Source of the DNA: Candidatus Latescibacterota bacterium
GTDB lineage: Bacteria > Latescibacterota > UBA2968
Direction: 5' to 3'
NCBI GenBank assembly: GCA_965204745.1
Contig: OZ242010.1
Span: forward strand, 2,304,001-2,368,000
DNA: 64,000 nt
The stretch's first letter is position 1, and every line of letters begins with the position of its first letter. The translations under genes were made by a program, and so were the position numbers. This document shows, piece after piece, positions 21,137-62,429 of this stretch. The notes under the pieces were generated by a model. It saw only the letters and a list, made by a program, of their open reading frames with translations, did not search any database and had not been told where the DNA came from.

Positions 21137-21335
21137 CAACTGACAACTGACAACTGACAACTGACAACTGACAACTGACAACTGACAACTGACAACTGAC
21201 AACTGACAACTGACAACTGACAACTGACAACTGACAACTGACAACTGACAACTGACAACTGACAACTGACAACTGACAACTGACAACTGACAACTGACAA
21301 CTGACAACTGACAACTGACAACTGACAACTGACAA
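21137..21335 (+). repeat. Perfect (CAACTGA)x28 tandem repeat
   Basis: 196 bp = 28 exact copies plus CAA, running into the AAGGAAAGGA RBS. Confidence 0.98.
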
Positions 21336-22731: not shown

Positions 22732-22900
22732 CAGTTGTCAGTCGTCAGTTGTCAGTTGTCAGTCCACCCAACCGCCCAACCCCAAGCGGTCAGCCCCCGC
22801 ATCCATCAACCCGTAGGGACAGTCCCCCGTTCCCACACCGCCGGACGGATGCGCGAGGAACGCACACGGCGGGGTTGGGCGAGGCAGGGCACGCTACGGG
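22732..22900. repeat. Mosaic repeat cluster (CAGTTGT heptamers, GTAGGG REP-like unit, GGGCACGCAC module)
   Basis: 22860-22894 matches 24993-25027 at 33/35 positions. Confidence 0.8.
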
Positions 22901-31131: not shown

Positions 31132-31835
31132 ACGCGAAAATTGAGAAGCAATTTCGAGCGCCTTATGGCGCGCCCAACGGGTTGCAACTGACAGCCGAGG
31201 GCTTGTGGATCGTCGATCAAGCGACCGACCGCGTGGCATTGATGAGCATGGACGAAGCCGCGGACGATGATTACGGCACTCGGCGATTGTTGCGGGACAT
31301 TCCGTCCGAATCCTCGAATACCAGTGGCATGGCCGCAGGCGATGGCTCCTTGTGGCTGGCGGCCAATGGGCCGGGCAAACGCTGGCGCCTGCCGCGTGCA
31401 ACAGACGCGCTTCAAGGCGATGTTTTGCGCGTGGACCCCCAAACCGGAGCCACGCAAGGCCGTTGGGCATTGCCCACCGGCGGCGGCACGCACGGTATCG
31501 AATACGACGCGATTGAACCGGGCACGCTTTGGCTGACGACCTTGAAAGAACAGACCTTGACGCAGGTGCGGATTGACGATTGGGCCGTGTTGCACACAGT
31601 CAAACTCCCCTTGCCGCGCGCGCATGGGGTGGTGCGTCTGGACGAGGATGCGATTTGGGTGGTTCACACCGGGCATCGGGTCATCGTCAAATTGGATTTG
31701 GCGAGCAGTGCAGAACGCGACCGCATCGACGTGCCCGAACCGCATCCCGAACCCCATGGGCTGTCCGCGTGTGCGGATGGGTTCTTGTATTGCGACGCCA
31801 CCTCCGGCTGGGTGTCGAAAATCTCGTGTCGATAA
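31128..31835 (+). CDS. Beta-propeller protein (Vgb/glutaminyl-cyclase-like repeats)
   Basis: Repeating PNGL/THGI/AHGV/PHGL...LW blades; ATGA overlap with the peptidase. Confidence 0.65.
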   Translation: MNAKIEKQFRAPYGAPNGLQLTAEGLWIVDQATDRVALMSMDEAADDDYGTRRLLRDIPSESSNTSGMAAGDGSLWLAANGPGKRWRLPRATDALQGDVLRVDPQTGATQGRWALPTGGGTHGIEYDAIEPGTLWLTTLKEQTLTQVRIDDWAVLHTVKLPLPRAHGVVRLDEDAIWVVHTGHRVIVKLDLASSAERDRIDVPEPHPEPHGLSACADGFLYCDATSGWVSKISCR

Positions 31836-31860
31836 TCGCCGCCGGCGCGACAAACTCATT

Positions 31861-31884
31861 CCCCGGCCCGCCGGGGTTTTTTTC
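31861..31884 (+). terminator. Intrinsic terminator
   Basis: CCCCGG-CCCG-CCGGGG followed by T7. Confidence 0.7.
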
Positions 31885-31917
31885 TGTTGTCGCCAGCGGT
31901 TCAAGGGGACAGGCACT

Positions 31918-46700: not shown

Positions 46701-46985
46701 CAGGATGGCAAGACCGTGCAGGTGAAACTCATCCGCACGAGTGTCGGGGTCGCGCAGTTGGATTTTAATGGCGACAACGCGATTGACATCAATGATTTTT
46801 TGTTGTTCATCAGCAAGTTTGGCCTCGCCACGGGCGATCCGGGTTTCGAGTCAAAATACGATCTCGATGGCAATGACATCGTGGGGTTCAGCGATTTTGT
46901 GCTCTTTGCCGAGGGCTTTGGCAAACGAGTGCCTTCATCCAAGCCCGTGGCCCTCCGCCCCCTGCCCGGTTGGAGCGATTCATGA
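43740..46985 (+). CDS. Chondroitin ABC lyase-like polysaccharide lyase (PL8) with C-terminal paired EF-hand/dockerin-like domain
   Basis: Signal peptide, NFTGWRAMW, DQGWAAGS, IKPDYTSFHH...AY, FGRYLSYGS, GWDWSMWPGTT; DFNGDNAIDINDF / DLDGNDIVGFSDF. Confidence 0.88.
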   Translation: MHTYKWILVAIGVLAHSAMAQDVPWHYDFEEASLSPAYRADAGSRIAVSTRHYKTGRQSLAWTWQNSDRLLFTDPAPGRNTALTAFRAWVYLEQASADSTLTFRFGTESELATNNPRYQFEFGMNFTGWRAMWIDLPRDATRAAYTGPNAGRVTAFDIVAPNQTGSAYLDLMELVDSRSVRRAIADVQVPFVNGGAVNNRELRWSLNALPSASVPAAITQAQRNAFATIANRYETWILGNNVKADMREPVQIRLDSLTSFIALGHRNFERFEVTRTSDGRVLGRPLFSSRSPYRPYFNEIFQGMLLYLALDFRLNNNQRAKDRALDVFDYLNDQGWAAGSSIGTMYHEFLRVSGYANSVYLMRDTLRARGTLARELQTIEWHSMFGEIYDASWDPGTNADFLRSVGLFRLLLILMMDDTPEKVAKMQHYLRWLNNAIDIAPGWLDTIKPDYTSFHHRGIYTNAYGQNAIHMSALLVYLLHDTPFAVDDDGRDNVKNALLTSRTMANAYDISTAIGGRFPFSTTIANRLLPAQMYMAMSYTPVDAELAGAFMHLWRPESPFLKVELFPRVSVRIMYLDSPGAIQMMADFAARGYAANPVSGHWTMPYGALSIHRRDEWMVSMKGWSKYVWDFESDGNLNRFGRYLSYGSMLIYATGDPAGRVASGIVEAGWDWSMWPGTTVIRLNETELAAWNRDRNFSDETFVGGVNLEGENGVFALKLHDTEHDASFRGIKTAFCFDEVLVCLGSGITNSDSGHETVTTLFQTAISANRATVIDGEGMFSLPYSFSGTAGQGVWLMDSSGNGYVLPDGNGLQVRRTQNEAGAFELAWINHGSMPADSTYQYAVLVQQPQGRVRQFAAAPEYVVLQRDNRAHIVHYPKMNTTGYAMIDAAARPMQGEIVQVDIPVLAMTRETEEGLLLSVADPNFGWDWIIQTPHRQSGTLVVNQSSTPRTVTLTMRGQWRLDGTQALARVTGVQANPDRTTVALTCQDGKTVQVKLIRTSVGVAQLDFNGDNAIDINDFLLFISKFGLATGDPGFESKYDLDGNDIVGFSDFVLFAEGFGKRVPSSKPVALRPLPGWSDS

Positions 46986-47605
46986 TCCGATTTCTCATTG
47001 TTATGTTGCTCTGCGCGTCCGCCTCTGTGCGCGCCGAAGACGCGAACGAGGCGATCCTGTTTTTGGGCGACAGCTTGACCGCCGGGTACGGCTTGGACGA
47101 AGCGCGGGCTTTTCCCGCATTGGTGCAGGCGAAGATCGATTCTCTGGGCTGGGCCTTTGAGGTGATCAACGGCGGGTTAAGTGGCGAGACATCCGCAGGC
47201 GGGTTGCGGCGGGTCACCTGGTTGTTGCGCCGCAAGATCGACATTCTGGTGCTGGCACTGGGCGGCAATGACGGCTTGCGCGGCATCCCCACATCCGAAA
47301 TGCAGCAGAACTTGCAGGGTATCATAGACCGCGCCCGCACAACCTATCCCGACGTACAAATCATCCTCGCGGGCATGGAAGCCCCTCCCAATTTGGGCGA
47401 TGCGTACACGGCGGCCTTCCGCACGGTGTTTCCAACCCTCGCAGAGAAAAATCGCATCCCGCTCATCCCCTTTCTGCTCGAAGGCGTGGGCGGCATTGCA
47501 ACCCTGAACCTCCCCGACCGCATCCACCCCAATGCCCAGGGCCATCGCATCATCGCCGAAACCGTGTGGCACGCGCTCAAACCCATTCTCGAAGGCGAGA
47601 GGTGA
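46982..47605 (+). CDS. Arylesterase / TesA-like SGNH hydrolase
   Basis: GDSLTAGYG, GLSGETSAGG, LGGNDGLRG, DRIHPN. Confidence 0.92.
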   Translation: MIRFLIVMLLCASASVRAEDANEAILFLGDSLTAGYGLDEARAFPALVQAKIDSLGWAFEVINGGLSGETSAGGLRRVTWLLRRKIDILVLALGGNDGLRGIPTSEMQQNLQGIIDRARTTYPDVQIILAGMEAPPNLGDAYTAAFRTVFPTLAEKNRIPLIPFLLEGVGGIATLNLPDRIHPNAQGHRIIAETVWHALKPILEGER

Positions 47606-48001
47606 GAGGCGAGAGGCAAGAGGTGAGAGGCAAGAGGTGAGAGGCAAGAGGTGAGATAGTAGTTTAGCCACAAAAGGCACGAGCGGGGTACAACTGGCGA
47701 TAGCCCGTTCAAAGCACAAAAGGTGAGCAAGATATGTAGGGGCGTCGCCCCCGTGCTCAAAAAAAAATACAAGATGCGAGAGACGAGTTGCGTAGGGACA
47801 CCGTGCCTGTCCGAATAGACGGACAAGGTAGCAGGTCATCAACGAATACGGGATAAACCAACGCACGGGCGGTTGGGCACTTGAGTAGGGCACGCACGCG
47901 GGGCGGTTGGTGGCGGGTGAGGAACGCACACGGCGGGGCAGGGTGAGGTAGGGAACGCACGGGTGGCGGGGTGGCGGGGTGGACTGACAACTGACAACTG
48001 A
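47599..48001. repeat. Mosaic intergenic repeat cluster
   Basis: GAGGTGA/GAGGCAA heptamers, several GTAGGG REP-like starts, GGGCACGCAC modules and a CTGACAA tract. Confidence 0.8.
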
Positions 48002-48009
48002 CAATGCGA

Positions 48010-48100
48010 ATTAAGAGTAGAAAGCGAGTAAGAAGCAAGCCGCAACCCATCATCCAAAGACATGAACGAGTCATCCATTGATAGAATCGCCCTTGAATTT
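48010..48100 (-). pseudogene. Degenerate 3' end of an IS982-like transposase
   Basis: Minus strand reads SING*LVHVFG*WVAACFLLAFYS* with the stop inside the TIR; resembles the RSxNGLxVHVFGRL C-terminus recalled for this family (not database-checked). Confidence 0.55.
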
Positions 48101-48246
48101 GTCTTAAAACGAACGATGGATGCCCCTCCTCCGGCTCTTCCCCGCAACGGAGAGATGTTATTCCCCTTGTATCTTCCTCGTAGGCACAGGCGTAGCCTAC
48201 AACGAAGCGTAGCGAGTAACAGGGCCAGGGGGTAGGTCCCAATTCC

Positions 48247-48293
48247 AAAAAGTAAAGCCCGAGTTCGCTGTGAACCCGGGCTTTACTTTTTTT
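48247..48293 (-). terminator. Bidirectional intrinsic terminator downstream of the minus-strand genes
   Basis: AAAAAGTAAAGCCCG...CGGGCTTTACTTTTT hairpin. Confidence 0.8.
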
Positions 48294-48305
48294 GTTTTTC
48301 GTCGT

Positions 48306-48512
48306 TCAGCCTGTCGAGCCAAAGTCGGCGGCGAAGATGAGGAAATCGGCAGAATCAATTTGACCATCGCCATCGCCATTGAGATCACACCGAGGGTCAT
48401 ATCGCTCCTGGCCGGGTCGCGAGCCGAACTTGCCGGCAAAGGTCAAGAAGTCGGCGAAATTCACATCGCCATCGCCATCTTCATCTGTGGCGGTCAGGGA
48501 ACAGGCTTTCAT
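48306..48512 (-). CDS. Stand-alone paired EF-hand/dockerin-like ORF (or displaced domain remnant)
   Basis: DEDGDGDVNFADFLTFAGKFG...DLNGDGDGQIDSADFLIFAADFG; ATGA overlap with the stop of the giant gene. Confidence 0.6.
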   Translation of the reverse strand: MKACSLTATDEDGDGDVNFADFLTFAGKFGSRPGQERYDPRCDLNGDGDGQIDSADFLIFAADFGSTG

Positions 48513-51500
48513 TGGAAGTGGGAGTCGGGATAGAGGCTTCGGATGTAGGGTTCAATGGCTTGAGCGGTCGTGCGCGTAGCATTTTGCTCGATGACGTTCC
48601 CTCTGACGAGGGCCTCGTTCCGGAAGAAGAGGACGTATCGAATGATCAGGATTATATCCGAGAACAGCCTCACATCGCCATCGCCATCCACATCGAGAAT
48701 GTTCTGATTGACCAACGTGTCGAGGTAGGGTTCAATTTCTTGAGCGGTCGTGCGCGTGGCAGTTTGCTCGATGACATTCCCTCTGAGGAGGGCCTCGTTC
48801 CGGAAGAAGAGGACATATCGAATGACCAGGATTATATCCGAGAACAATCTCACCCGGCCATCGCCATCCACATCCAAGTTGGCACTCGGTGCGTCGTCAT
48901 CGGTCAAGGTCAGGGTCACGGGTGAGGGTGCGGTGATGCCTTGGGCGTTGTTTGCGGTTGCAGACACCGTGACCGTCTTATCGTCTGCCCGGTCAGCGTT
49001 TTCCACGGCGGTGATCGTCACGGTGCCCGTGCTCGTTGTGGCCGTCGCCGCGATGATCAGGGTGTCTGCATTCGATAGCGTGAAGTCGCTCGCAGTTGCA
49101 GGGGACACAGGCGTAGCAGAGACCGTGATCGTCGTGATCGCGCTCGATGGATGCGAGAGGGTCGCCGTGATCGTGGAAACCTCGGCGTTTTCCGAGATGG
49201 ACGAGGGGGTGAGCACCAACGTCACGGTCGGTGTGGCCTCATCGTCTGTGATCGTCAGGGTCACGGCAGACGATAGCGACGCCCCATTGCCACCCGCAAC
49301 CGTTGCAGCCACGGTCACGCGCTTGTCCGGTGCATCGGTCGTATTATTCTCCGCTGTGATCGTCACGGTGCCCGTGCTCGTCGTCACACTCGCCGCGACG
49401 GTCAGCGTGGTCGTGGTCGATAGCGTGAAATCGCCCGCAACCGCAGGCGACACAGCCATCGCTGAAACCGTGATCGTCGTCGCCGCGGTCACGGTGCGAT
49501 TTAGCGTCGCCGTTACTGTTGAAACCGCGCCAGCCTCAGAAATCGACGCCGGAGACAAAACCAACGTCACCTGTGCCACTTCGTCATCGATAATCGTCAG
49601 CGTCGCATCAGTGACCGATCCCGTGCCTATGCTGTTGCCCACCGTGCTCGCCGACACGGTCACCGTCTTGTTCCCCGAAGACATGCTGTTGTCCACCGTC
49701 GTGATCGTCACGGTGCCCGTGCTCGTCGTCGCGCCCGCCGCGACGGTCAGCGTGGCCGTGCCCGATAGCGTGAAGTCGCCCGGAACCGCAGGCGACACAG
49801 CCGACGCGGAAACCGTGATCGTCGTCGCCGCGCTCGATGGGTGCGAGAGGGTCGCTGTCACGGTCGAAACCGCGCCAGCTTCAGAAATCAACGCCGGTGC
49901 CACCATCATCGTCACGTCCGGTGCCGCGTCATCGTCTGTGATCGTCAAAGCCGCGCCGGTCACACTGCCCGCGCCTTGGTCGTTGTTCGCTACACCGGCC
50001 ACGGTCACATTGCGATTAGGCGCGTCTTGGGTGTTGTCCACCGCTGTAATGATCACCGTGTCCGACGCGTTCGCCGTGCTCCCGGCCGCGATGGTGATCG
50101 TCGAATCCGACCCCACTGTGTAGGCATTCGCCACCGGGCGCACCGTGATCGTTGTCGCCGCGCTCGATGGGTGTGTCAGCGTCGCGCTCACCGTGCTCAC
50201 GCCGCCGGCCTCCGAGATGGACGCGGGCATCAGCACCAGCGTCACGTCCGGCGCGGCGTCATCGTCTGTGATCGTCAAATCCGTGCCGGTCACACTGCCC
50301 ACGCCTTGGTCATTGCTCACCGCAACAGACACGGTCACATCGTTGTTCGGCGCATCGGTCGCGTTGTCCACGGCCGTGATCTCTACTGTGTCCGTCGCGT
50401 TCGCCGTGCTCCCGGCCGCGATGGTGATCGTCGAATCCATCCCCACCGTGTAAGCATCCGCCACTGGGCGCACCGTGATCGTCGTGATCGCGCTCGACGC
50501 ATGAGACAGCGTCGCCGTGATCGTCGAAACACCGCCGGTCTCTGCAATCGACGCGGGCGACAGCGTCAGTGCCACATCCGGCGCGGCCTCATCGTCTGTG
50601 ATCGTCAGGGTCACGGCAGACGATAGCGACGCCCCATTGCCACCTGCCACCGTTGCAGACACGGTCACGCCCTTGTCCGGCGCATCGGTCGTGTCGTTCA
50701 CCGATGTGATCGTCACGGTGCCCGTGCTCGTCGTCACACCCGCCGCGATAGTCAGCGTGGTCGTGTTCGATAGCGTGAAGTCATTCGCAACCGCAGGGGA
50801 CACAGCCTCCGCTGAAACCGTGATCGTCGTCGCCGCGGTCGCGGTGCGATTTAGCGTCGCCGTTACTGTTGAAACCGCGCCAGTCTCCGCAATCGACGCC
50901 GGAGACAAAATCAACATCACCTGCGCCACTTCGTCATCGATAATCGTCAGCGGCGCATCAGTGACCGATCCCGTGCCCACGCTGTTGGATGGCGTGCTCG
51001 ACACGGTCACCGTCTTGTTCCCCGAAGACTGGCTGTTGTCCACCGTCGTGATCGTCACGGTGCCCGTGCTCATCGTTTGCCCCGCCGCGACGGTCAGCGT
51101 CTTGTCCGTGCTCAATGTGTAGTCGGATGATGTAGGCACGGAAACCGTGATCGTTGTCGCCGCGCTCGACGTGTGAGACAGGGTCGCCGTCACGGTCGAA
51201 ATCGCGCCGTTCTCTGAAATCAACGCAGGCGTCACAACCATCGTCACGTCCGGCGCAGCGTCATCGTCCGTCAGCGTCAAAGTCACCCCGGTCACACTGC
51301 CCGCGCCATGGGCGTTGCGTGACACACCGGACACGGTCGCGCTGCGATCAAGCGCGTCTTGGGCGTTATCCACGGCCGTGATCGCCACCGTGTCCGACGC
51401 GTTCGCGGTTTGCCCGGCCGCGATGGTGATCGTCGAATCCGTCCCCACGGTATAAGCATCAGCCACCGGGCGCACTGTGATCGTCGTTGCCGAGATCGAT

Positions 51501-54500
51501 AGACGCGATAGCGTCGCCGTGATCGTCGAAACACCGAGGTTCTCCGAAATCGACAACGGTGATGCCGCCAACGTCGCTGTCGGCGCAGCGTCGTCGTCCC
51601 TCAGCGTCAATGTCACGGCAGACGATAAGCGACCTCCATTGCCACCCTGCACCGTTGCAGACACGGTTACGCGCTTGTCCGGCGCATCGGTCATATCGTT
51701 CACCGCTGTGATCGTCACGGTGCCCGTGCTCGTCGTTTGCCTCGCCGCGATGGTCAGCGTTTTCGCGTTCGATAGCGTGAAGGCACTCGCAACCACAGGC
51801 GACACAGGCGCCGCGGAGACCGTGATCGTTGTCGCTGCGCTCGATGGGTGTGCCAGCGTCGCGCTCACCGTTGAAACCTCGCCGTTTTCCGAGATGGACG
51901 AGGGCATCAGTGTCAACGTCACTATCGCGGGTTGGCGTTGAAATTGCACGGTGGTATCCATGCCGGCATATTTCAACACCGGATACTGATCCGCCGCGCC
52001 AAAGGTCCAAGGATCGTCATTGCCAGGCCTGCCATCGACATCCACATTCCAAGTGGCGTAGATGCCGTTGTAATCCGTTTCCGACTGCAACGCGCTGGTG
52101 GTATAGCCCGTGCCGCCAGCACTGGATGAGAGATCGCTACTTTCCGTATCCCAATAGCTATCGGTTCCTGTGCCAGAACCGGTAGCGAACAGACCGCCTG
52201 TCTGGTGGTTGTTCGAATTCCTAGTCGCCGTCCCCGTGGCGTAGCTTGCCGTAATTGTACCGGCATTCTGACCCACGAGACCGCCAATCGCTGAGCTCGC
52301 ATCAGTTCTCCCCCATCCCGACACCGGCCCGGTAGCATAGGACGCTGTCACAGAAGCACCGTTACCCAGGTAACCGACCAACCCGCCGACTTCATAGAGG
52401 ACGCTACCGTACCAATTTGGCCACTTTTGCACGGTGGCATGGGAATAGCAGGCCGCGATGTGACCACTGCTCACCAGCCGGCCGGCCAAACCGCCCACGC
52501 CGTAACGGGCACCCTCAACAAAACCGGTGACATAACAACCCGTTATGCGCCCGCCGTTCTGAGCACCAACTAACCCACCAACGGTGTCTGTCGCGTGTAC
52601 ATTGACATTGAGCAATCCAACCCCAGAAATATCGCCACTCACGATTGAAAACAGCCCAACATTGCTCCTTTGGTTTGTGTGTGGGTAGGACATATACAGA
52701 TAGGAGATGGTCTTGTTATTACCCTTGAACGTACCGGTGTAAGTCCCAATAGGTATCCAACCCGTGCCGCCGTTCCAGTAGGTAGTGTCTGCTTGGGTGA
52801 TTGCGCCGTCGTTGTTCTCGTCAAAGTTGAGGTTGTTGAGCAGTTCGTAGCCTGTGCAGGTTCCGGAAGGGCAACCCATCCGGCCATTGCTGGTGGTGAC
52901 GCGGTTGGGAAAGGCGGCGTTGTAGGTCATAGTGTCACTATCGGCGACGACCCCATCGCCGTTGAGATCCCAGCGGATGGCATGCAGTTGTGCCAGCGTC
53001 TTAATGTCGATGAGGCCATCGCCATCCCTGTCGTAATTGATCGCTTGGGGCGTGCCCATGACCTCGTCCGAGGGCGTGCTATCGGTCCCACCTGCCAGGG
53101 TAGCAGTGACGCGCACCGTGTAGGTCGCGCCAAAAGTCAGGTTCTCTATCGTGTAGGTCGTGGTGCTCATCCCAGAGACCGTCGTCTGGCGATCAGATGT
53201 GTTGTAGCTTTGTCCACCGGACTTCCACTGTATCTTGTAGCCCGTCGCGCCGGTTGCCTCGGTCCAAGCCACAATGAGTTGGGCCGGCCCCGGCGTCACG
53301 CGCACATTGGTGGGCCTGGTGGTCGCCAAGGTCACCATGACTTCCTCCGAGGGGACACTGTCGGCTACATTGATATTGGTACTCGTGGCGATGACGCGAA
53401 TCGTGTAGGTCATCCCTGTAGTCAGCCCAGAAATTTTGTGGATCGTGGTGCTCCCACCAGCGATAGTAGCTTGCCCGTGCGTGGCGGCCTGAGAATCGGC
53501 GTTGGGATAAGTCTCTGACCCGGATTTCCACTGCACCTTATACCCGGTTGCGTTGGTCACCGCATTCCAGGTCACGGTCAGCGTGTCCACCGTCGCACTC
53601 ACATCCACACCCGTTGGGCTACCCAGCGTGAGAATGCTGATCACTTCCTCCGAAGGGGCACTGTCGGCTACATTGGTACGCGTGGCGATGACGCGAATCG
53701 TGTAGGCCATCCCTACGGTCAGCCCAGAAATATCGTAGGTCGTGGTACTCCCGTCAGTGATGGTGGCTTGCCCGTGCGTGGCGGACGCCACATCGGCGTT
53801 GGGATAAGTCTCTGCCCCGGTTTTCCACTGCACCTTATACCCGGTCGCCCCGTTCACCGCATTCCAAGTCACGGTCAATGTGTCCCCCTTCGCCGCCACC
53901 ATCACAGTCGGACTGCCCAGCAGAGGAACGCCGGTCACTTCCTCCGAAGGGGCACTGTCGGCTACATTGGTACGCGTGGCGATGACGCGAATCGTGTAAG
54001 TCGTCCCTGCGGTCAGCCCAGAAATATCGTAGGTCGTGGCACTCCCGCTTGCGATGGTGGCTTGCCCGCGCAAGGCGGCCGCCACATCGGCGTTGGGATA
54101 AGTCTCTGACCCGGTTTTCCACTGCACCTTATACCCGGTGGCATCGTCCACCGCGTTCCAAGTCACGGTCAGCGTGTCCACCTTCGCCGCCACCATCACA
54201 GTCGGACTGCCCAGCACGGGAACGCCGGTCATTTCCTCCGAGGGGGCACTGTCGGCTACATTGGTACGCGTGGCGATGACGCGAATCGTGTAAGTCGTCC
54301 CTACGGTCAGCCCAGAAATATCGTAGGTCGTGGCACTCCCGCCTGCGATGGTGGCTTGCCCACGCAAGGCGGCCGCCACATCGGCGTTAGGATAAGTCTC
54401 TGACCCGGTTTTCCACTGCACCTTATACCCGGTGGCATCGTCCACCGCGTTCCAAGTCACGGTCAGCGTGTCCACCTTCGCCGCCACCATCACAGTCGGA

Positions 54501-57500
54501 CTGCCCAGCACGGGAACGCCGGTCACTTCCTCCGAGGGGGCACTGTCGGCTACATTGGTACGCGTGGCGATGACGCGAATCGTGTAAGTCGTCCCTACGG
54601 TCAGCCCAGAAATATCGTAGGTCGTGGCACTCCCGCCTGCGATGGTGGCTTGCCCGCGCAAGGCGGACGCCACATCGGCGTTAGGATAAGTCTCTGACCC
54701 GGTTTTCCACTGCACCTCATACCCGGTGGCATCGTCCACCGCGTTCCAAGTCACGGTCAATGTGTCCACCGTCGCACTCACCTCCACACCCGTCGGGCGT
54801 TCCAGCATGGGAACGCCGGTCACTTCCTCCGAGGGGGCACTGTCGGCTACATTGGTACTCGTGGCGATGACGCGAATCGTGTAGGTCGTCCCTCTGGTCA
54901 GCCCAGAAATTTTGTAGGTCGTGGCACTCCCGTCAGTGATGGTGGCTTGCCCGCGCAAGGCGGACGCCTGATCGGCGGTGGGATACATCTCATTCCCTGA
55001 TTTCCACTGCACCTTATACCCGGTGGCACTGGTCACCACATTCCAAGTCACGGTCAACGTGTCCAACTTCGCCGCCACCATTACAGTCGGAATGCCCAGC
55101 CTGGAGATAACGCCGGTCTGCTCTGCTGAGGGCATGCCATCGCGGGCACCGGTTTTGGTGGCAATGACACGCACTGTGTAGGTCGTCCCGATGATCAAGT
55201 TGGGGATCTTGTGGAGCGTATCCGTGACGGTCGTCTGACGCGAGGCGGCGTAGCTCTGCATGCCGGATTTCCACTGCACCTTGTACCCCGTCGCATAACT
55301 CGCCGTGCGCCAACGCACGTCCAAGGTGCCCGCTTGTGGCGTCACGGTCACACTTGTCGGAATGCCCGGCGGTTGCATTGCAAATTGTGCGGCGGTGTCC
55401 AGGCCGGCATATTTCAACACCGGATACTGATCCGCCGCGCCAAAGGTCCACGGGTCGTCATTGCCAGACCTGCCATCGACATCCACATCCCAACTGGCGT
55501 AGATGTCGTCGTATGACGTTTGCGACTGCAACGCGCTGGTGGTCTGGCCCGTGCCGCCAGAACTGGATGGGCGACCACTACTTTCCGTATCCCAGTAGCT
55601 ATGGGACACATTGAAAGCTCCAACCCCTGTCAATCCGCCTACATTTATGCTCCCAGTGACTCTCCCCGTGGCATAGCTAGCCGAAAGATTACCACCATTA
55701 AAGTGCCCAACCAGACCGCCCACATTGTCATGTCCAGCCACCGGCCCGATGGCGTAGGACGCTATCACCTGTCCCTCTCCAATCACGTGGCCCACCAAAC
55801 CGCCGGGAGTAAGACCGCCGGTATTATTCCGATTCCGACTACTTCTGACCTCAGCATTGGTATAGCTGGCCGCGATAATGCCTTGTGATTGACCCACTAA
55901 ACCGCCCGCAGTGTGAACGGCACTCTCAACGCGACCCGTGACAAAACAGCCCAGGATGCGACCACCCGTCTGAGCACCGGCCAACCCACTCACGTAGTAT
56001 TGGCCTCTTACATTGACATTTTTCAGCCCCAGACCGGAAATGTTGCCGCTGACACGGCTGAACAGCCCAACATACCAACCAGTAGTAGTGTCGCCGGGAG
56101 GAAGATTAACAAAGATACGGGCGATGTACAGGTTGGAGATGGTCTTGTTATTGCCCTTGAATGTGCCAGTGTAAGTCTCCCGCGAAGCAATCCTCCACGT
56201 TCCAATAGGGAGCCAACCCACGCCGCTGGTCCATGAGGATGGGCCTTCTGAAAAGTCGAGGTTGTTGAGCAATTCGTAGCCTGTGCAGGTCCCGGAAGGG
56301 CAACCCATCCGGACATTGCTGGTGGTATCGCGGTTGGGAAAAGCGGCGGCATAAACGGCGTGGGTAGCGTCGCCGTTGCCATCCATGTCGTAGCGGATGG
56401 CATTGAGTTGCGCCAGCGTCGTAATGTCGATGAGGCCATCGCCATCCCTGTCGTAATCGATCCCCGGGGGCGTGCCCATGACCTCGTCCGAGGGCGTGCT
56501 ATCGACCCCACCTGACAGGATAGCAAGGACGCGCACCGTGTAGGTCGTGCTAACCGTCAGGTTCTCTATCGTGTAGGTCGTGGTGCTCACCCCAGAGACC
56601 TGCGCCTGTCGAGAAGAGGGGTCGTATGCCTGTTGCCCGGACTTCCACTGCACCTTGTATCCCGTCGCGCCGGTTGCCTCGGTCCAACGCACGAGGAGTT
56701 GGGTCGTCCCCGGGGTCACGCGCACATTGGTGGGCCTGTTTGTCGCCGGCATCACCATGACCTCGTCCGAAGGCGTGCTGTCGGCGATATTGATATTGGT
56801 GCTCGTGGCGATGACGCGAACCGCGTAGAGCGTCCCGACGGTCACACCGGAGATTTTGTGGGTCGTGGTGTTCCCGCCTGCGATGGTGGCTTGCCCGCGC
56901 GTGGCGGAATCCAGATCGACGGTGGGATAAGTCAGAGCCCCTGATTTCCACTGCACCTTATACCCGGTTGCATTGGGCACCGCATTCCAAGTCACGGTCA
57001 GCGTGTCCATCTTCGCCGCCACCATCACAGTCGGCTTGCCCAGCAAAGGAACGCCGGGCACCTCGGCTGAGGGAGCACTATCGGCTACATTGGTGTGCGT
57101 GGCGATGACTTGAACCGTGTAGGTCGTCCCTGCGGTCAACCCAGAAATTTTGTGGGTCGTGGTGTTCCCGCCAGCGATGGTGGCTTGCCCGCGCAAGGCG
57201 GACGCCAGATCGGCGGTGGGATACATCTCTGACCCGGATTTCCACTGCACCTTATACCCCGTTGCATTGGGCACCGCATTCCAAGTCACGGTCAGCGTGT
57301 CCATATCCGCCGCCACCATCACCCCCATTGGGCTACGCAACAAGGGAACGCCGGGCACCTCGACAGAGGGAGCACTCCCGGGCAGACCGGCCTTGGTGGC
57401 AATGACACGCACGAGATAGGGCGCCCCGGCGATCAAGTTGGGGATCGCGTAGCGCGTCCCCGTGACGATCGCCTGACGCGAAACATCGTAGGTCCGCCTG

Positions 57501-59779
57501 TAGAGTTTCCACTGCACCTTGTACCCCGTCGCAGTGCTCACCGCAGTCCAGCGCACGTCCAAGGTGTCCACTTTGGGCGTCACGATCACACCCGTCGGCA
57601 TGTCCAGCCCTTTAAGGGGCGTGCCCACGACCTCGTCCGAGGGATCACTATCGGTCCCACCTGCCAGGGTAGCAGTGACGCGCACAGTGTAGGTCGTGCC
57701 AAAAGTCAGGCCCTCTATCGTGTAGGTCGTGGTGCTCCCGTCAGAGACCGTCGCCTGGCGAGAAGAGGTGTTGTAGGTCTGTTGCCCAGACTTCCACTGC
57801 ACCTTGTAGCCCGTCGCGCCGGTTGCCTTGGTCCAATCCACAATGAGTTGGAGCGGCACCGGTGTCATGTGCACATTGGTGGGCTTGGTGGTCGCCGGCG
57901 TCAACATGACTGCGTCCGAAGGGTCACTGTCGGCGGCATTGAGGCGGGTGGCGATGACTTGAACCGTGTAGGTCGTCCCTGCGGTCAGACCAGAAATATC
58001 GTAGGTCGTGGTGAGCACGCTACCGATAGTGGCTTGCCCGCGCGTGGCGGACGCCAGATCGGAGGTGGGATAAGTCAGAGCCCCTGATTTCCACCGCACC
58101 TTATACCCGGTCGCATTGCGTACTAACCCCCAAGTCACGGTCAGCGTGTCTGTCTTCGCCGCCACCATCCCACCCGTCGGCTTGCCCACCCGTTGCGCGT
58201 TAAATTGCGCGGCGGTGTCCATGCCGGCATACTTCAAGACCGGATACTGACTCGTCGTGCCAAAGCTCCACGGATTGTCGTTGCCCGTTTGCCCGTCCAG
58301 GTTTAGGTTCCAGTTGGCGTAGATGCCGGTATAATCCGTGGGGTTTTGGAGCCCGGCGGTGGACTGAGGGCCGCCGCGTCCGGTGTCTTTTTGTCCGGTG
58401 GTGGTACTATCGTAGTAGCTGTAGCTAATTGATGTAGAACTGTTGAAGCCCACCAGACCGCCGATATAAGAGACGGCGCCGGTGCCCCTGACTGCGCCGG
58501 TGGCATAGCTAGCGGTTATCGCGCCCTCGAAAGCAGTACCGACCAGGCCGCCGAAGAAGGTTTGGCCTCTAACGGCGCCGGTGGCATAGCTAGCGCGTAT
58601 GACAGCACTTGAGCCGCTGTGAATGCCCACCAGACCGCCGACGTAAACATTGTCGTTGCTGACTGCGCCGGTGGCATAGCTAGCGGTTATCGTGCCGGAG
58701 TTGCCACCTACCAGACCGCCGAAGCGTACATCAACGTAGGGTCTGCTACCGCGCCCAGTGACGTCCACCTCGGCACCGCAGGCGGTAATGGTCGAGCTAC
58801 CGTGCGTCAGATTGCCCACCAAGCCACCGCCATCGCTGAGCCCGCTGACCTGTCCGGTAACGCGGATGTGCATGAGCTGGAGCCTGTTGCCTTGGCCAAC
58901 AAGGACTGCGGTATAAGCAGAGCCGGTCATATCGGCGTTCACCAGACTCAAATTGCGGATCGTACCGCCCTCGGCATAGCCGAACAGCCCGATATGGTTG
59001 GTGGCAGAGCGGTCGATAAACAGGGTGGAGATGGTATAGTCGTTGCCGTGGAAGTTGCCGGTGTATTTCGTCTCGCTGTTGCCGATGGGCGCCCAACCCT
59101 CGCCGATGTTCCAGTAGGTGGCGTCTGCTGAGGTGATTTCGTTGTCGCTGTTCTCGTCAAAGTTTAGGTTCGCCGTCAGTTCGTAGCCGATACAGGTGGT
59201 ATCGCAACCCATCCCAGGCGGCAGGTTGGGGAAGGCGGCATTGTAGGCGGTCGTATCGCTGGTCGTGGCACTTGTGTCTATGGCACCATCGGCATTGAGG
59301 TCCCAGCGCATGGCATGCAGTTGCGCCAGCCCGGTTTGCCCAGCACCGAGTTCAATGAGGTTGTCGCCATCGGTGTCGTAGTCGGTAAAGTTGCCGGCAG
59401 AGACCGTATAGGTCAGCGTGGTCGTTCCCACAGCGGGGGAAACCACGATGCGGATGCTGACCGGCAGGGTAGATACGGCGACTTGGTGGCCGCTGGTCGC
59501 GCTGGCATCGGCCGGCGTGATGGCGACAGTTGCCCCAGAATTGGTTGGGGTCGCGGTCACGGTGATCTCTGTCGCGCCGGATTGAACGGCAAATGCGTAG
59601 GTGGTTTTGTCGGATGCGAATGTGGAAAGCAGGGTGCCTTGCGTGAGGGTCAGCGCGCTGAGGGTCGTATCGGTATTCGAGGGCGTCGTCTGCGCTGTCG
59701 CGGGGGCGACCAGCAAGGGCATGACCAACATGGCGATCCAGGTTGGAAGGGACAGAAAAGGAAAAATAAAGCGCACCAT
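48509..59779 (-). CDS. Giant secreted adhesin-like protein (3756 aa): cadherin-like beta sandwich, three GLUG-type domains, Fn3 arrays, Calx-beta-like repeats, two C-terminal dockerin-like repeats
   Basis: Signal peptide, GGLVG/ASYATG repeats, ATGYKVQWKSG Fn3 repeats (294-bp period around 53887-54475), 180-bp C-terminal duplication LDVDGDG; AAGGAG RBS. Confidence 0.9.
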   Translation of the reverse strand: MVRFIFPFLSLPTWIAMLVMPLLVAPATAQTTPSNTDTTLSALTLTQGTLLSTFASDKTTYAFAVQSGATEITVTATPTNSGATVAITPADASATSGHQVAVSTLPVSIRIVVSPAVGTTTLTYTVSAGNFTDYDTDGDNLIELGAGQTGLAQLHAMRWDLNADGAIDTSATTSDTTAYNAAFPNLPPGMGCDTTCIGYELTANLNFDENSDNEITSADATYWNIGEGWAPIGNSETKYTGNFHGNDYTISTLFIDRSATNHIGLFGYAEGGTIRNLSLVNADMTGSAYTAVLVGQGNRLQLMHIRVTGQVSGLSDGGGLVGNLTHGSSTITACGAEVDVTGRGSRPYVDVRFGGLVGGNSGTITASYATGAVSNDNVYVGGLVGIHSGSSAVIRASYATGAVRGQTFFGGLVGTAFEGAITASYATGAVRGTGAVSYIGGLVGFNSSTSISYSYYDSTTTGQKDTGRGGPQSTAGLQNPTDYTGIYANWNLNLDGQTGNDNPWSFGTTSQYPVLKYAGMDTAAQFNAQRVGKPTGGMVAAKTDTLTVTWGLVRNATGYKVRWKSGALTYPTSDLASATRGQATIGSVLTTTYDISGLTAGTTYTVQVIATRLNAADSDPSDAVMLTPATTKPTNVHMTPVPLQLIVDWTKATGATGYKVQWKSGQQTYNTSSRQATVSDGSTTTYTIEGLTFGTTYTVRVTATLAGGTDSDPSDEVVGTPLKGLDMPTGVIVTPKVDTLDVRWTAVSTATGYKVQWKLYRRTYDVSRQAIVTGTRYAIPNLIAGAPYLVRVIATKAGLPGSAPSVEVPGVPLLRSPMGVMVAADMDTLTVTWNAVPNATGYKVQWKSGSEMYPTADLASALRGQATIAGGNTTTHKISGLTAGTTYTVQVIATHTNVADSAPSAEVPGVPLLGKPTVMVAAKMDTLTVTWNAVPNATGYKVQWKSGALTYPTVDLDSATRGQATIAGGNTTTHKISGVTVGTLYAVRVIATSTNINIADSTPSDEVMVMPATNRPTNVRVTPGTTQLLVRWTEATGATGYKVQWKSGQQAYDPSSRQAQVSGVSTTTYTIENLTVSTTYTVRVLAILSGGVDSTPSDEVMGTPPGIDYDRDGDGLIDITTLAQLNAIRYDMDGNGDATHAVYAAAFPNRDTTSNVRMGCPSGTCTGYELLNNLDFSEGPSSWTSGVGWLPIGTWRIASRETYTGTFKGNNKTISNLYIARIFVNLPPGDTTTGWYVGLFSRVSGNISGLGLKNVNVRGQYYVSGLAGAQTGGRILGCFVTGRVESAVHTAGGLVGQSQGIIAASYTNAEVRSSRNRNNTGGLTPGGLVGHVIGEGQVIASYAIGPVAGHDNVGGLVGHFNGGNLSASYATGRVTGSINVGGLTGVGAFNVSHSYWDTESSGRPSSSGGTGQTTSALQSQTSYDDIYASWDVDVDGRSGNDDPWTFGAADQYPVLKYAGLDTAAQFAMQPPGIPTSVTVTPQAGTLDVRWRTASYATGYKVQWKSGMQSYAASRQTTVTDTLHKIPNLIIGTTYTVRVIATKTGARDGMPSAEQTGVISRLGIPTVMVAAKLDTLTVTWNVVTSATGYKVQWKSGNEMYPTADQASALRGQATITDGSATTYKISGLTRGTTYTIRVIATSTNVADSAPSEEVTGVPMLERPTGVEVSATVDTLTVTWNAVDDATGYEVQWKTGSETYPNADVASALRGQATIAGGSATTYDISGLTVGTTYTIRVIATRTNVADSAPSEEVTGVPVLGSPTVMVAAKVDTLTVTWNAVDDATGYKVQWKTGSETYPNADVAAALRGQATIAGGSATTYDISGLTVGTTYTIRVIATRTNVADSAPSEEMTGVPVLGSPTVMVAAKVDTLTVTWNAVDDATGYKVQWKTGSETYPNADVAAALRGQATIASGSATTYDISGLTAGTTYTIRVIATRTNVADSAPSEEVTGVPLLGSPTVMVAAKGDTLTVTWNAVNGATGYKVQWKTGAETYPNADVASATHGQATITDGSTTTYDISGLTVGMAYTIRVIATRTNVADSAPSEEVISILTLGSPTGVDVSATVDTLTVTWNAVTNATGYKVQWKSGSETYPNADSQAATHGQATIAGGSTTIHKISGLTTGMTYTIRVIATSTNINVADSVPSEEVMVTLATTRPTNVRVTPGPAQLIVAWTEATGATGYKIQWKSGGQSYNTSDRQTTVSGMSTTTYTIENLTFGATYTVRVTATLAGGTDSTPSDEVMGTPQAINYDRDGDGLIDIKTLAQLHAIRWDLNGDGVVADSDTMTYNAAFPNRVTTSNGRMGCPSGTCTGYELLNNLNFDENNDGAITQADTTYWNGGTGWIPIGTYTGTFKGNNKTISYLYMSYPHTNQRSNVGLFSIVSGDISGVGLLNVNVHATDTVGGLVGAQNGGRITGCYVTGFVEGARYGVGGLAGRLVSSGHIAACYSHATVQKWPNWYGSVLYEVGGLVGYLGNGASVTASYATGPVSGWGRTDASSAIGGLVGQNAGTITASYATGTATRNSNNHQTGGLFATGSGTGTDSYWDTESSDLSSSAGGTGYTTSALQSETDYNGIYATWNVDVDGRPGNDDPWTFGAADQYPVLKYAGMDTTVQFQRQPAIVTLTLMPSSISENGEVSTVSATLAHPSSAATTITVSAAPVSPVVASAFTLSNAKTLTIAARQTTSTGTVTITAVNDMTDAPDKRVTVSATVQGGNGGRLSSAVTLTLRDDDAAPTATLAASPLSISENLGVSTITATLSRLSISATTITVRPVADAYTVGTDSTITIAAGQTANASDTVAITAVDNAQDALDRSATVSGVSRNAHGAGSVTGVTLTLTDDDAAPDVTMVVTPALISENGAISTVTATLSHTSSAATTITVSVPTSSDYTLSTDKTLTVAAGQTMSTGTVTITTVDNSQSSGNKTVTVSSTPSNSVGTGSVTDAPLTIIDDEVAQVMLILSPASIAETGAVSTVTATLNRTATAATTITVSAEAVSPAVANDFTLSNTTTLTIAAGVTTSTGTVTITSVNDTTDAPDKGVTVSATVAGGNGASLSSAVTLTITDDEAAPDVALTLSPASIAETGGVSTITATLSHASSAITTITVRPVADAYTVGMDSTITIAAGSTANATDTVEITAVDNATDAPNNDVTVSVAVSNDQGVGSVTGTDLTITDDDAAPDVTLVLMPASISEAGGVSTVSATLTHPSSAATTITVRPVANAYTVGSDSTITIAAGSTANASDTVIITAVDNTQDAPNRNVTVAGVANNDQGAGSVTGAALTITDDDAAPDVTMMVAPALISEAGAVSTVTATLSHPSSAATTITVSASAVSPAVPGDFTLSGTATLTVAAGATTSTGTVTITTVDNSMSSGNKTVTVSASTVGNSIGTGSVTDATLTIIDDEVAQVTLVLSPASISEAGAVSTVTATLNRTVTAATTITVSAMAVSPAVAGDFTLSTTTTLTVAASVTTSTGTVTITAENNTTDAPDKRVTVAATVAGGNGASLSSAVTLTITDDEATPTVTLVLTPSSISENAEVSTITATLSHPSSAITTITVSATPVSPATASDFTLSNADTLIIAATATTSTGTVTITAVENADRADDKTVTVSATANNAQGITAPSPVTLTLTDDDAPSANLDVDGDGRVRLFSDIILVIRYVLFFRNEALLRGNVIEQTATRTTAQEIEPYLDTLVNQNILDVDGDGDVRLFSDIILIIRYVLFFRNEALVRGNVIEQNATRTTAQAIEPYIRSLYPDSHFQ

Positions 59780-60044
59780 TTTAGTCTCCTTTCGAGGGGG
59801 GACACTGTACTGATCATCCTAACAGGCTGTTTGGCAATAAAATAGAACCGCACTCCAAGACGAGAATGGGCGATATGAACGCCAGTTTTCTCGGTGGGAC
59901 AGGCGGGAAAAACATAGAGCCAAATGAGGTTCAAACAGCGGCTGAAAATGGCGGTGATCATCTGAATCCTCCTTTGCAAAAGCTGTCGCGTAGACCGGGC
60001 GCGGCTTTTTCTCCGCGTTCAAAATCGCCATGGTGAACGAGAAA

Positions 60045-60074
60045 AATATAGGGAATCACGCTATTGTTTGTCAA
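60045..60074 (-). promoter_or_regulatory. Putative sigma70 promoter of the giant minus-strand gene
   Basis: Minus strand TTGACA, 18-bp spacer, TATATT. Confidence 0.55.
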
Positions 60075-60127
60075 GCGGTAAAATGACGGTGGGATCGGTG
60101 GTCAGTCAAGCGAGAAGGCATGCGAGG

Positions 60128-60540
60128 GGGACCTACCCCCTGGCCCCGTTACTCGCTACGCTTCGTTGTAGGCTACGCCTGTGCCTGCGAGGAAGGGGGA
60201 ATGGCGAGAGGTTGTGCGAGGTGGGACCTACCCCCCTGGCCCCCCTTCCTGCGAGGAAGGGGGGAACTGTGAGTGGTTTTGCGAGGGATTGTGCGAGGGG
60301 GGTTTGGGTTTCTATGGCGTGATCCATTCGCCCAAAGCCATCAAAACAGCCCTAGATGCAAACCTTTAAGAAAGCCATGCGCTCCCCCTTTCCTTGTAGG
60401 AAAGGGGGCCGGGGGGATAGGTCTATGGCGACAGGGCGTGCGAAGGACACAGCGGAGGAGAACGATGAAGAGGCGGTGGGGTGGTGGGTGGTAATCCGCG
60501 TAATCCGCGCAATCCCCTAATCCGTTTAATCCGCGATTCA
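60128..60540. repeat. Palindromic GACCTACCCCC-family elements plus 9-bp AATCCGCGT-like tandem
   Basis: 60128-60195 is an inverted copy of 48173-48240 (66/68). Further copies at about 60225 and 60383-60425; nonamers at 60493-60538. Confidence 0.85.
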
Positions 60541-60605
60541 GACACGGGCGGCAGGGTGGCGAGGACGGCCACGCTCATCGCGCTAAAACAAAATGTCAAC
60601 AGAAC

Positions 60606-60674
60606 CTCGTTCATGTCTTTGGATGATGGGTTGCGGCTTGCTTCTTACTCGCTTTCTACTCTTAATTCGCATTG
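60606..60674. repeat. Perfect 69-bp inverted copy of 48002-48070
   Basis: Base-by-base reverse-complement match. Confidence 0.95.
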
Positions 60675-60719
60675 ACAAATATAGACATACAAGTGAATGA
60701 GTTTATCTTGCCAATCCAT
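60675..60719 (-). pseudogene. 5' remnant of an IS982-like transposase
   Basis: AAGGAAGGAG RBS, 6 nt, then ATG 60719 encoding MDWQDKLIHLYVYIC, cut exactly at the internal inverted repeat; family similarity recalled, not database-checked. Confidence 0.6.
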
Positions 60720-60842
60720 CGCGTGCTCCTTCCTTTAAGGGTGAAATGATTGAGCCCTCAAGAAAAGACAAGTACGCGATGGATTCAACTCTTAATTCGC
60801 ATTGACAACTGACAACTGACAACTGATTTTCGGAGATGTATC

Positions 60843-62429
60843 ATGCGAAATCCCGTGGTAATCGGCATTGACGTGGGAACGGGCAGTGTGCGGGCGGGTG
60901 TATTTGCGTTGGATGGCACCATGCTCGGCGCGGCATCGTCGCCGATTTTGGAATTTCATCCCGAGCCGGATTTTTACGAGCAATCGTCCGAGAATATTTG
61001 GACCGAGACCGGGCGCGTGGTGCGCGAAGCCCTCGCCGAATCCAAGTGTTCGCCCAAAGCGGTGATCGGCCTGAGCTTTGACGCGACGTGTTCGCTCGTG
61101 GTCTTAGACGCTGATGGGCAGCCCCTGAGCGCGTCGAAAACCGGGCGGGCCGAGCGCAATGTGATCGTGTGGCGCGATCACCGCGCCATCGATCAAACGA
61201 ATCGGATCAACGCGGGTGCGTACGACGTGTTGCGATATGTCGGGGGTGTGATGTCGCCCGAGCAAGAGCCGCCCAAATTGTTGTGGCTCAAGGAAAACCT
61301 GCCCGACACCTGGCAACGGGCGGGCAAATTTTTCGATCTGGCGGATTTTATGGTCTATCGGGCGACCGGGATTGACCGGCGGAGTCTGTGTACCAATGTG
61401 TGCAAGTGGACCTACTTGGGGCACGAGTCGCGTTGGGATACTGACTTTTTTCACGCCATTGGCCTGGGCGATTTGTTCGACCGCGGCAAAGTGACGGAAG
61501 AGGTCGCACCGATGGGCGAATGTGCGGGGACCTTGTGCGCCGAGGCCGCGGACCTGATGGGCTTGACCACAAAAACAGCCGTGGGCGTGGGCATTATCGA
61601 CGCGCATGCGGGCGGGATCGGCGTTGGGGTTGACGAACCGATTTTGGCATTGATTGGCGGCACGTCCTCCTGTCACATGGCCGTGGCGAACGAGGCGCGA
61701 TTTATTCCCGGGGTGTGGGGGCCGTACTGCGGCGCGCTGTTGCCGGGCATGTGGCTCAGCGAAGGCGGGCAAAGCGCGACCGGGGCCTTGTTGGATCACA
61801 CGATAGCGCGATTTGGCATGGTGCGCGAAGAAGACCACTATTGGCATGTGCTCACCGGCAAAGAGATCAACGCGGTGTACGCGGAACTCAACGCGTACAT
61901 CGCCCAAAAAGGCGTGCGGTCAGATTGGACCGAGCGGTTGCACATCTCGGCCGATCACCACGGCAACCGCTCGCCCATGGCCGATCCCCAGGCGCGCGGG
62001 ATGATGGACGGGTTGACGCTGGACATGTCCTACGATGCGCTGGCGCGCATTTATCACGCGACCATCCAAGCGGTGGCTTATGGCACGCGCCACATTATCG
62101 ACGCGATGGAAGAACAGGGCTATGCCATCGCGCAAATCAATGCGTGCGGGGGCGGCACGAAAAACGCGCTGTGGATTCGAGAACACGCCGACGCCACGCA
62201 ACGCCCCATCCACTTGCCCAAAGAGCCGGAAGCCGTGTTGCTCGGCGCGGCGATTTTAGGCGCGGTTGCCGCGGGCGCGTTTTCCGACATTCAAGCCGCG
62301 ATGCGCGCCATGTGCCACGCGGGCGAAGTCATCGAACCCAACCGCGACACCGCAGACTTTCATGCGTGGAAATCCGCGCAACAACTGGCGATGTACGATC
62401 AGCATGTCGCCCGGCGGGAATCAAAATAA
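60843..62429 (+). CDS. FGGY-family pentulose (D-ribulose-type) kinase
   Basis: IGIDVGTGSVRA, FDATCSL, WRDHRA, MSPEQEPPKLLWLK, GNRSP. Confidence 0.9.
   Translation: MRNPVVIGIDVGTGSVRAGVFALDGTMLGAASSPILEFHPEPDFYEQSSENIWTETGRVVREALAESKCSPKAVIGLSFDATCSLVVLDADGQPLSASKTGRAERNVIVWRDHRAIDQTNRINAGAYDVLRYVGGVMSPEQEPPKLLWLKENLPDTWQRAGKFFDLADFMVYRATGIDRRSLCTNVCKWTYLGHESRWDTDFFHAIGLGDLFDRGKVTEEVAPMGECAGTLCAEAADLMGLTTKTAVGVGIIDAHAGGIGVGVDEPILALIGGTSSCHMAVANEARFIPGVWGPYCGALLPGMWLSEGGQSATGALLDHTIARFGMVREEDHYWHVLTGKEINAVYAELNAYIAQKGVRSDWTERLHISADHHGNRSPMADPQARGMMDGLTLDMSYDALARIYHATIQAVAYGTRHIIDAMEEQGYAIAQINACGGGTKNALWIREHADATQRPIHLPKEPEAVLLGAAILGAVAAGAFSDIQAAMRAMCHAGEVIEPNRDTADFHAWKSAQQLAMYDQHVARRESK

Follow-up and report, generated by a model that had tools for sequence, protein, structure and literature searches.

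A candidate mobile insertion cassette with IS982-family termini carries a giant adhesin-type gene in a Candidatus Latescibacterota genome

Introduction

The closest known kind of element to the one described here is the mobile insertion cassette (MIC), above all the TALE-gene MICs of Xanthomonas, which are bounded by TnXax1 inverted repeats, with MIC231 of Bacillus cereus cited in the same work as a further example (PMC4337579). As far as that account goes, MICs are passengers between inverted repeats of insertion sequence (IS) or transposon type, with no transposase inside and the cognate transposase elsewhere in the genome, and the TALE-gene MICs form a repeat-rich paralogous family in which members have both repeats, a solo repeat or none and in which 5-bp duplications accompany some members only (PMC4337579). 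The element considered here is likewise a passenger between such repeats with no transposase inside and a cognate transposase elsewhere, and it belongs to a repeat-rich paralogous family of which some members have two repeats, some one and some none, with matching pentamers that may be duplications at some members only; it occupies positions 48004-60802 of a 64,000-nucleotide window (the whole stretch of DNA analysed) from a Candidatus Latescibacterota bacterium, the window being part of a single 5.48-Mb contig (genome G000; GenBank GCA_965204745.1, OZ242010.1). The segment holds a giant adhesin-type gene bounded by identical 67-nt inverted IS remnants at 48004 and 60672, has no transposase gene of its own and has six counterparts in the genome. 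From the sequence evidence it is, with fair but not strong confidence, a non-autonomous MIC-like derivative of an IS982-family IS, in which transposase supplied in trans would act on two outward termini and direct insertion at TGWCA.

Other small IS-derived elements offer partial parallels. In the Cardinium endosymbiont, a MITE (miniature inverted-repeat transposable element) of ~240 bp that derives from IS982, for which the published description reports no carried gene, is likewise a lineage-specific non-autonomous derivative maintained beside intact parental copies (PMC9769881), whereas in the present genome a unit that carries a gene has a truncated MITE as one of its borders. The pair of 439-bp MITEs that surrounds an integron in Acinetobacter (PMC3934969) and the mosaic or MITE-type non-autonomous transposons of Pseudomonas termed TIMEs (PMC4133298) resemble the present case in that genes unrelated to them lie between two small IS- or transposon-derived repeats, which have been proposed as the means of their movement, but as described in those sources they have other parent families and carry resistance or accessory genes, usually in single copy. 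New here are the IS982-family parent, the bounding of the unit by two right-end remnants (67 and ~86 bp), the single surface-protein gene of 4-11 kb as cargo, the multi-copy state and the heptamer microsatellite as target; the TALE-gene MICs differ from the present cassettes in parent, ends, cargo and target, and differ further in that the window copy is fused to a left-end stub and that its mobilisation in trans is something we infer. No description of IS982-derived gene-carrying cassettes was found in the literature searched.

A composite transposon consists of two complete IS copies around a cargo, one or both of them with a transposase gene, and a transporter IS (tIS) carries passenger genes together with its own transposase. 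The segment resembles the former in that inverted, outward-facing IS termini bound the cargo, and a composite transposon is a plausible ancestor of the cassettes, but neither flank has a transposase gene, the IS sequence on either side amounting to remnants of 67-86 bp and a 130-bp stub. It differs from a tIS in having no transposase gene inside, and from a MITE (<~600 bp, non-coding, with terminal inverted repeats) in being 12.7 kb long and coding.

The parental IS and its target

An earlier note made from the letters of the window alone (the original prediction) recognised transposase-like peptides at the two ends of the segment and proposed a search for an intact partner IS elsewhere in the genome. 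Such a partner exists in 15 full-length copies (~1 kb each, 96-100% identity), 13 of which match the transposase without interruption over residues 1-297. The IS is 984 bp long, with the ends ATGCG...CGCAT, 15-bp terminal inverted repeats (TIRs) and a single open reading frame (ORF) for a 297-aa transposase (N-terminus MDWQDKLIHLYVYICQQYD, C-terminus LLVHVFGRLTAACFLLAFYS). Assignment to the IS982 family was made with NCBIfam NF033520 at a cut-off of 130 bits, which the transposase passed with 147.8 bits; Pfam DDE_Tnp_1 and DDE_Tnp_1_3 also match. The family is described as comprising elements of ~1 kb with one transposase ORF of ~290 aa, TIRs and direct repeats of variable length, and the parental IS agrees with this in size, ORF, TIR and duplication (PMC7335449). 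Its tips are 5'-ATGCG and not the 5'-AC of 57 of the 69 IS982 members in ISfinder, AC being a majority and not a universal trait of the family (PMC7335449).

The length of the target duplication was derived from the five full copies lying outside CAACTGA tracts, all of which have the ends ATGCG...CGCAT and a duplication of 5 bp (TGGTG, TGACG, TAACA, TTTCA and CAGTA). When the flanking sequences of all 15 full copies were read by eye, the 5-bp duplication was perfect in 11 and absent in two, the remaining two having a common damaged left end. Two IS copies with the same damaged left end, at G000:C1:3322951-3323938 and 3871589-3872576, have identical flanks and opposite orientation, a sequence pattern which suggests a larger inverted duplication. 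Outside the full-length ISs the genome holds ~66 right-end copies, together with IS982-derived MITEs such as one of 276 bp (L071). TGACA or TGTCA adjoins 51 of the 81 right-end copies in the genome, giving a target preference of TGWCA. Each CAACTGA unit supplies one TGACA, and as there are 145 CAACTGA tracts of at least two units genome-wide, ISs, MITEs and cassettes accumulate in these heptamer tracts.

Two right-end remnants and a left-end stub

The ends of the segment and its insertion site comprise the following features.

47988..48003, plus strand: left half of the (CAACTGA)n tract, with the left TGACA at 47999-48003 (by the 5-bp rule)
48004..48089, minus strand: right-end remnant A (IS ~984 to 899), terminus outward to the left, encoding the degenerate transposase C-terminus
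60606..60672, plus strand: right-end remnant B, 67 bp, inverted relative to A, terminus outward to the right
60673..60802, minus strand: 130-bp left-end stub of a young IS copy, with TIR, ribosome binding site (RBS) and 15 codons
60803..60826, plus strand: right TGACA copy and right half of the tract, directly before the RBS of the FGGY kinase gene (kinase ATG at 60843)

On the minus strand MDWQDKLIHLYVYIC follows AGGAG at one end of the segment while the other end reads NG*LVHVFG*WVAACFLLAFYS*, as originally noticed, and the proposed likeness to IS982-family transposases proved correct, the peptides being the first 15 codons and a degenerate version of the last 23 of the 297-aa protein. Nothing else of the transposase remains in the segment, whose other ORFs are the giant ORF, a 68-aa dockerin ORF and shadow ORFs.

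The view that this is a single IS with its interior replaced found no support on closer comparison. Two inverted repeats had been overlooked, one of 72 nt (47999-48070 and 60606-60677) and one of 68 nt (48173-48240 and 60128-60195, 97% complementary), and the 72-nt repeat reveals a second IS right end, inverted, at 60672-60606 against the left-end piece. The stub is identical to the reference active IS copy at 128 of 129 positions and terminates after TGTCA (IS 126-130; plus-strand TGACA at 60673-60677), the consensus target pentamer, which remnant B abuts. Remnants A and B are identical to each other over 67/67 positions, but each agrees with the active IS at only 61/67, remnant A matching IS 901-988 at 86.5%. 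The two outer ends of the element, stub and far right end, are therefore of different lineages. In both remnants the first 40 bp of the terminus, the 15-bp TIR included, are those of the active IS. The junction of stub and remnant B was found nowhere else in the genome (self match only), nor in an exact-pattern scan of metagenome contigs.

The proposed boundaries needed small corrections. The 17-mer CAATGCGAATTAAGAGT is present at 48002-48018 and inverted at 60788-60804, as stated, but the true TIR of the IS is 15 bp; the 8-mer ACAACTGA does flank both ends (47994-48001 and 60805-60812), but the duplication is 5 bp, TGACA at 47999-48003 and 60803-60807, its apparent length of 8 bp arising from the pentamer together with the periodicity of the tract. 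Removal of the element restores the phase of the tract as predicted, with two units on the left and three on the right.

Elsewhere in the window a perfect 28-unit CAACTGA tract at 21137-21332 lies directly upstream of a gene starting at 21350, and the shorter tracts are at 22745, 43659, 47988 and 60806. The last tract unit before the FGGY kinase start contributes to a promoter-like CTGACA-17-TATCAT (10/12 matches; 60816-60844, plus strand), and heptamer tracts may supply -35-like hexamers.

Recurrence of the cassette

Inner flanks divide the right-end copies into classes, type B having 14 members and type A 11-13. At seven places an A copy and a B copy stand opposite one another, 5,249-12,673 bp apart and with unrelated flanks, so that the unit of right end, cargo and right end occurs seven times in the genome, while the left-end stub is confined to the window cassette. 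The further TIR-bounded cargos that the original prediction proposed to look for exist as six cassettes of 5.2-8.0 kb, each with one giant paralogous gene. Every cassette has one giant ORF (1,288-3,756 aa) reading from the B end to the A end, except c4165, in which the gene is split. The cargo of c4165 (L036 2499-7960) has two overlapping ORFs of 914 aa and is probably a broken gene. The cassette genes are paralogues with differing mixes of FN3, Calx-beta, GLUG and dockerin-like domains, and the sequence neighbouring the termini is 72-83% identical between cassettes. As the window cassette is one of seven, it is probable that a transposon lacking its own transposase carries these giant genes as passengers.

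The cassettes belong to a wider family. The last 397 bp of the gene occur 44 times in the genome at 83-99% identity. For the downstream region there are 31 occurrences and for the leader 28, and most have no IS remnant.

The locus in relatives and in public data

The genus comparison covered 21 genomes (G000 and 20 others), and the two nearest relatives (G018 and G016), whose FGGY kinases are 93% and 90% identical to that of the window, were used for synteny. In both the site is empty: the GDSL esterase and FGGY kinase genes are adjacent, 130 and 80 bp apart, without IS, cassette or CAACTGA tract. A second cassette, c1705, is without a stub, its only borders being two right-end remnants; a heptamer tract surrounds it, TGACA stands at either side, its flanks are adjacent in both relatives (117 and ~358 bp apart) and the insertion boundaries are exactly the two termini. 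Two of the seven cassettes, that of the window and c1705, are clean insertions in heptamer tracts.

Public short-read data were represented by Logan contigs of four runs from four studies, set against window positions 46900-61400; the runs containing this DNA carry sponge or marine metagenome labels. Unique stretches of the cargo were recovered at 99-100% identity in runs of all four studies. Contigs of the flanks stop at 48002-48004 and restart at 60801-60803, and none of the joints listed for them links the tract halves, a result which informs neither way because short contigs break at repeats. An exact-pattern search for the empty site (left flank, 0-30 nt, right flank) gave 0 matches in metagenome contigs and 0 in genome contigs.

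Proposed mechanism and rival explanations

In the MIC-like reading the core of the cassette (48004-60672) is one giant gene of adhesin type between two inverted right-end remnants, together with a leader, a promoter-like site and a terminator-like hairpin that belong to it. At this locus the core is joined, at a consensus TGTCA target inside an IS, to the 130-bp stub of a young copy. Transposase from intact copies would act in trans on an outward-facing pair of ends, either the stub TIR with remnant A or remnants A and B, and the unit would insert at TGWCA with a 5-bp duplication, the heptamer tracts serving as hot spots. The order of events, which we likewise infer, could have been one of two events, in which the cassette entered an IS at TGTCA and a move into the tract followed, with the stub TIR and remnant A as its ends and the donor lost by cut-and-paste. 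It could also have been one of three events, with an IS entering the tract, the cassette entering the IS and the 855-bp remainder being deleted between directly repeated right ends, while a microhomology deletion from TGACA to TGACA would be a third possibility. The data favour none of these.

Several observations weigh against this reading, and some of them suit an alternative in which the right-end remnants are bystanders, that is, decayed MITE or IS insertions copied passively and not used as ends, while homologous recombination and gene conversion, acting between paralogues and between small repeats (heptamer tracts, 68-nt and 200-nt repeats), spread and homogenise the family. Among the ~44 family genes with the conserved 3' module a B end is present in only 14 and an A end in 11-13, so that most of the family spread or was homogenised without these ends; the ~26 members without a remnant nevertheless share ~780 bp upstream and ~330 bp downstream, and an identity of 92-98% for the module across its 44 matches suggests concerted evolution. 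In maximum-likelihood trees with label shuffles (n=500), the presence of right ends is scattered both on the leader tree (12 of 28 copies, 8 changes, 134/500 shuffles as low) and on that of the downstream region (11 of 31, 9 changes, 275/500 shuffles as low), so that remnant-bearing copies do not form one clade and there is either much recombination among paralogues or the remnants are passengers. Matching flanking pentamers (TGACA/TGACA) in four of the seven cassettes, against 0.198 expected for each from the target bias (P = 0.032), speak for the MIC-like reading, but given that bias they are weak evidence. Five of the seven cassettes are non-collinear: when 1.5 kb beside the orthologue of the left flank was examined in the relatives, it did not include the right flank. 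This is the case for c3194 and c4165, and for c415, c1289 and c2995 (L031, L032 and L034) the DNA that the relatives have next to the left flank corresponds to G000 positions megabases distant (~3.63; 5.14 / 1.49; 5.06 / 4.39 Mb), which places these three at synteny breakpoints. These non-collinear cassettes fit repeat-mediated rearrangement and yield no empty site, and breakpoints, like flanks that are a graveyard of nested elements, would be expected of bystanders. No empty allele or second context was found in public data, and the genome holds no near-identical donor copy, the best paralogue being 94.4% identical over 3.2 kb. Against the bystander explanation, the boundaries of the inserts in the window and in c1705 coincide with IS termini, each side has TGACA, and the genes to left and right are neighbours in both relatives; the target pentamer to which remnant B is joined is a consensus one and lies within another IS; and the termini retain 40 bp identical to the active IS while the sequence beside them has diverged between cassettes. 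Passive copying of the remnants is unlikely, though it is the most serious competitor.

Other explanations fare worse. A single IS copy at the site with its transposase interior replaced by the adhesin unit, both ends belonging to the same copy, would account for one left and one right TIR bounding the segment in proper orientation within a phased tract with a matching duplication, but it is contradicted by the unequal similarity of stub and right end to the active IS and by the extra inverted right end, identical to the first, at the stub; the six sister cassettes have no left end at all and the A end is a truncated MITE, making this model highly improbable. That the cassette was misplaced, or the stub created, by a mis-join through the IS-end repeats during assembly hardly deserves credence. 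The short-read contigs of the four runs, all of which break at the two junctions, cannot confirm them, but the genome is one contig, the junctions follow the target rule of the element itself, the unique cargo stretches recur in four studies and long reads would seldom be mis-joined through shared repeats as short as 72 nt.

The diversification of giant repeat-rich surface proteins is attributed mainly to duplication and to recombination among their internal repeats. In this genome some of the giant genes lie in units with transposon ends, two of them precise insertions, and if the MIC-like reading is true then an IS of 1 kb could relocate entire genes of 4-11 kb without carrying them itself, and the MIC concept would come to include the IS982 family, single-gene cargo of very large size and an uncultured lineage. 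A microsatellite also serves here as an IS hot spot. The cassettes and IS copies are also likely drivers of the synteny breaks relative to the two relatives. A wider proposal, which is tentative, is that the IS982 element, the MITEs and the right-end-bounded cassettes form one working system, with the heptamer microsatellites upstream of genes as landing pads, one TGACA in each unit, through which the ~44-member adhesin family would be actively shuffled, duplicated and perhaps exchanged between cells as transposase-less passengers of 5-13 kb; if so, this would be a sponge symbiont with transposon-driven surface variation.

Mosaic borders of the cassette

Both borders of the cargo are mosaics, with these components (strand assigned only for the last).

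48004..48243: A module, collinear with the 276-bp IS982-derived MITE, i.e. right end, ~100 bp and 68-nt repeat
60128..60195: inverted copy of the 68-nt repeat, 97% complementary
60225..60423: ~200-nt abundant repeat, the interior of IS982-derived MITEs
60567..60605, minus strand: 39-bp terminus fragment (GTTCTGTTGACATTT...) of an IS5-family element, butted to remnant B

The A module is without the 45-bp left end of the MITE. On the B side the order inward is remnant B, IS5 fragment, 200-nt repeat, inverted 68-nt repeat and a 330-nt leader with a promoter-like site. A 378-nt query over this repeat region gave 166 genomic matches, mostly to its positions 180-378, and many matches of the ~200-nt repeat adjoin right-end remnants of MITE classes C and D. 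A class C right end also lies ~1.2 kb from the 3.63-Mb point mentioned above.

The IS5-family element is present intact as an 816-bp copy (L070 58-873; G000:C1:2060907-2061722) with a 25-nt inverted repeat, CTAG flanks, a two-ORF transposase (NF033580) and the TIR GTTCTGTTGACATTT, and at least 13 further termini of it, flanked by ...TAG, occur in the genome. The TTGACA beside remnant B was dropped as a candidate cargo promoter, being part of this TIR. Remnant B and the IS5 TIR are joined in this way at 14 places in the genome, 12 of them before the family leader, and no match crossed the junction in the 20 other genomes of the genus.

The cargo gene and its expression signals

The coding and expression features of the cargo are as follows.

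48247..48291, minus strand: hairpin resembling a terminator, its stem 20 bp long and set between an A run and a U run (-31.1 kcal/mol, z -7.0)
48306..48512, minus strand: 68-aa type I dockerin ORF (Pfam Dockerin_1, E 3.4e-5), its ATG overlapping the stop of the giant ORF (ATGA)
48509..59779, minus strand: giant ORF of 3,756 aa, secreted-looking
60045..60074, minus strand: promoter-like site within the leader common to 27 other copies

The original prediction had described the cargo as a complete expression unit on the minus strand, and its components were recovered. The giant ORF is the only large minus-strand ORF of the window that does not shadow a plus-strand gene, and AGGAG stands 8 nt ahead of its ATG; the putative promoter is TTGACA-18-TATATT at 60074-60045 (11/12 matches), promoter-like by sequence and with a predicted transcription start near 60040, and the putative terminator is the hairpin-like structure at 48247-48291, as stable as which none of 200 shuffles folded. 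The protein has 14 FN3 stretches, a cadherin-like domain, a GLUG motif and two divergent dockerin-like C-terminal repeats. For the unique 5' 3.7 kb of the cargo, the search for an orthologue in the two nearest relatives gave only matches of 170-390 nt at 75-78%, so that no source locus can be named.

A second giant ORF of the window (4,026 aa, 31573-43653, plus strand) contains none of the genome-wide matches of the family 3' module. The short leader ORF (MITAIFSRCLNLIW...) at 59779-59970 on the minus strand resembles an in-frame N-terminal extension of the giant ORFs in c2995, c3194 and c4165. The 68-aa ORF, which encodes a canonical type I dockerin, may be a second gene coupled to the first or the product of a frameshift, either programmed or disseminated by gene conversion; the arrangement belongs to the 3' module with its ~44 genomic occurrences, and the dockerin stretch is repeated at least 15 times in the relative G018.

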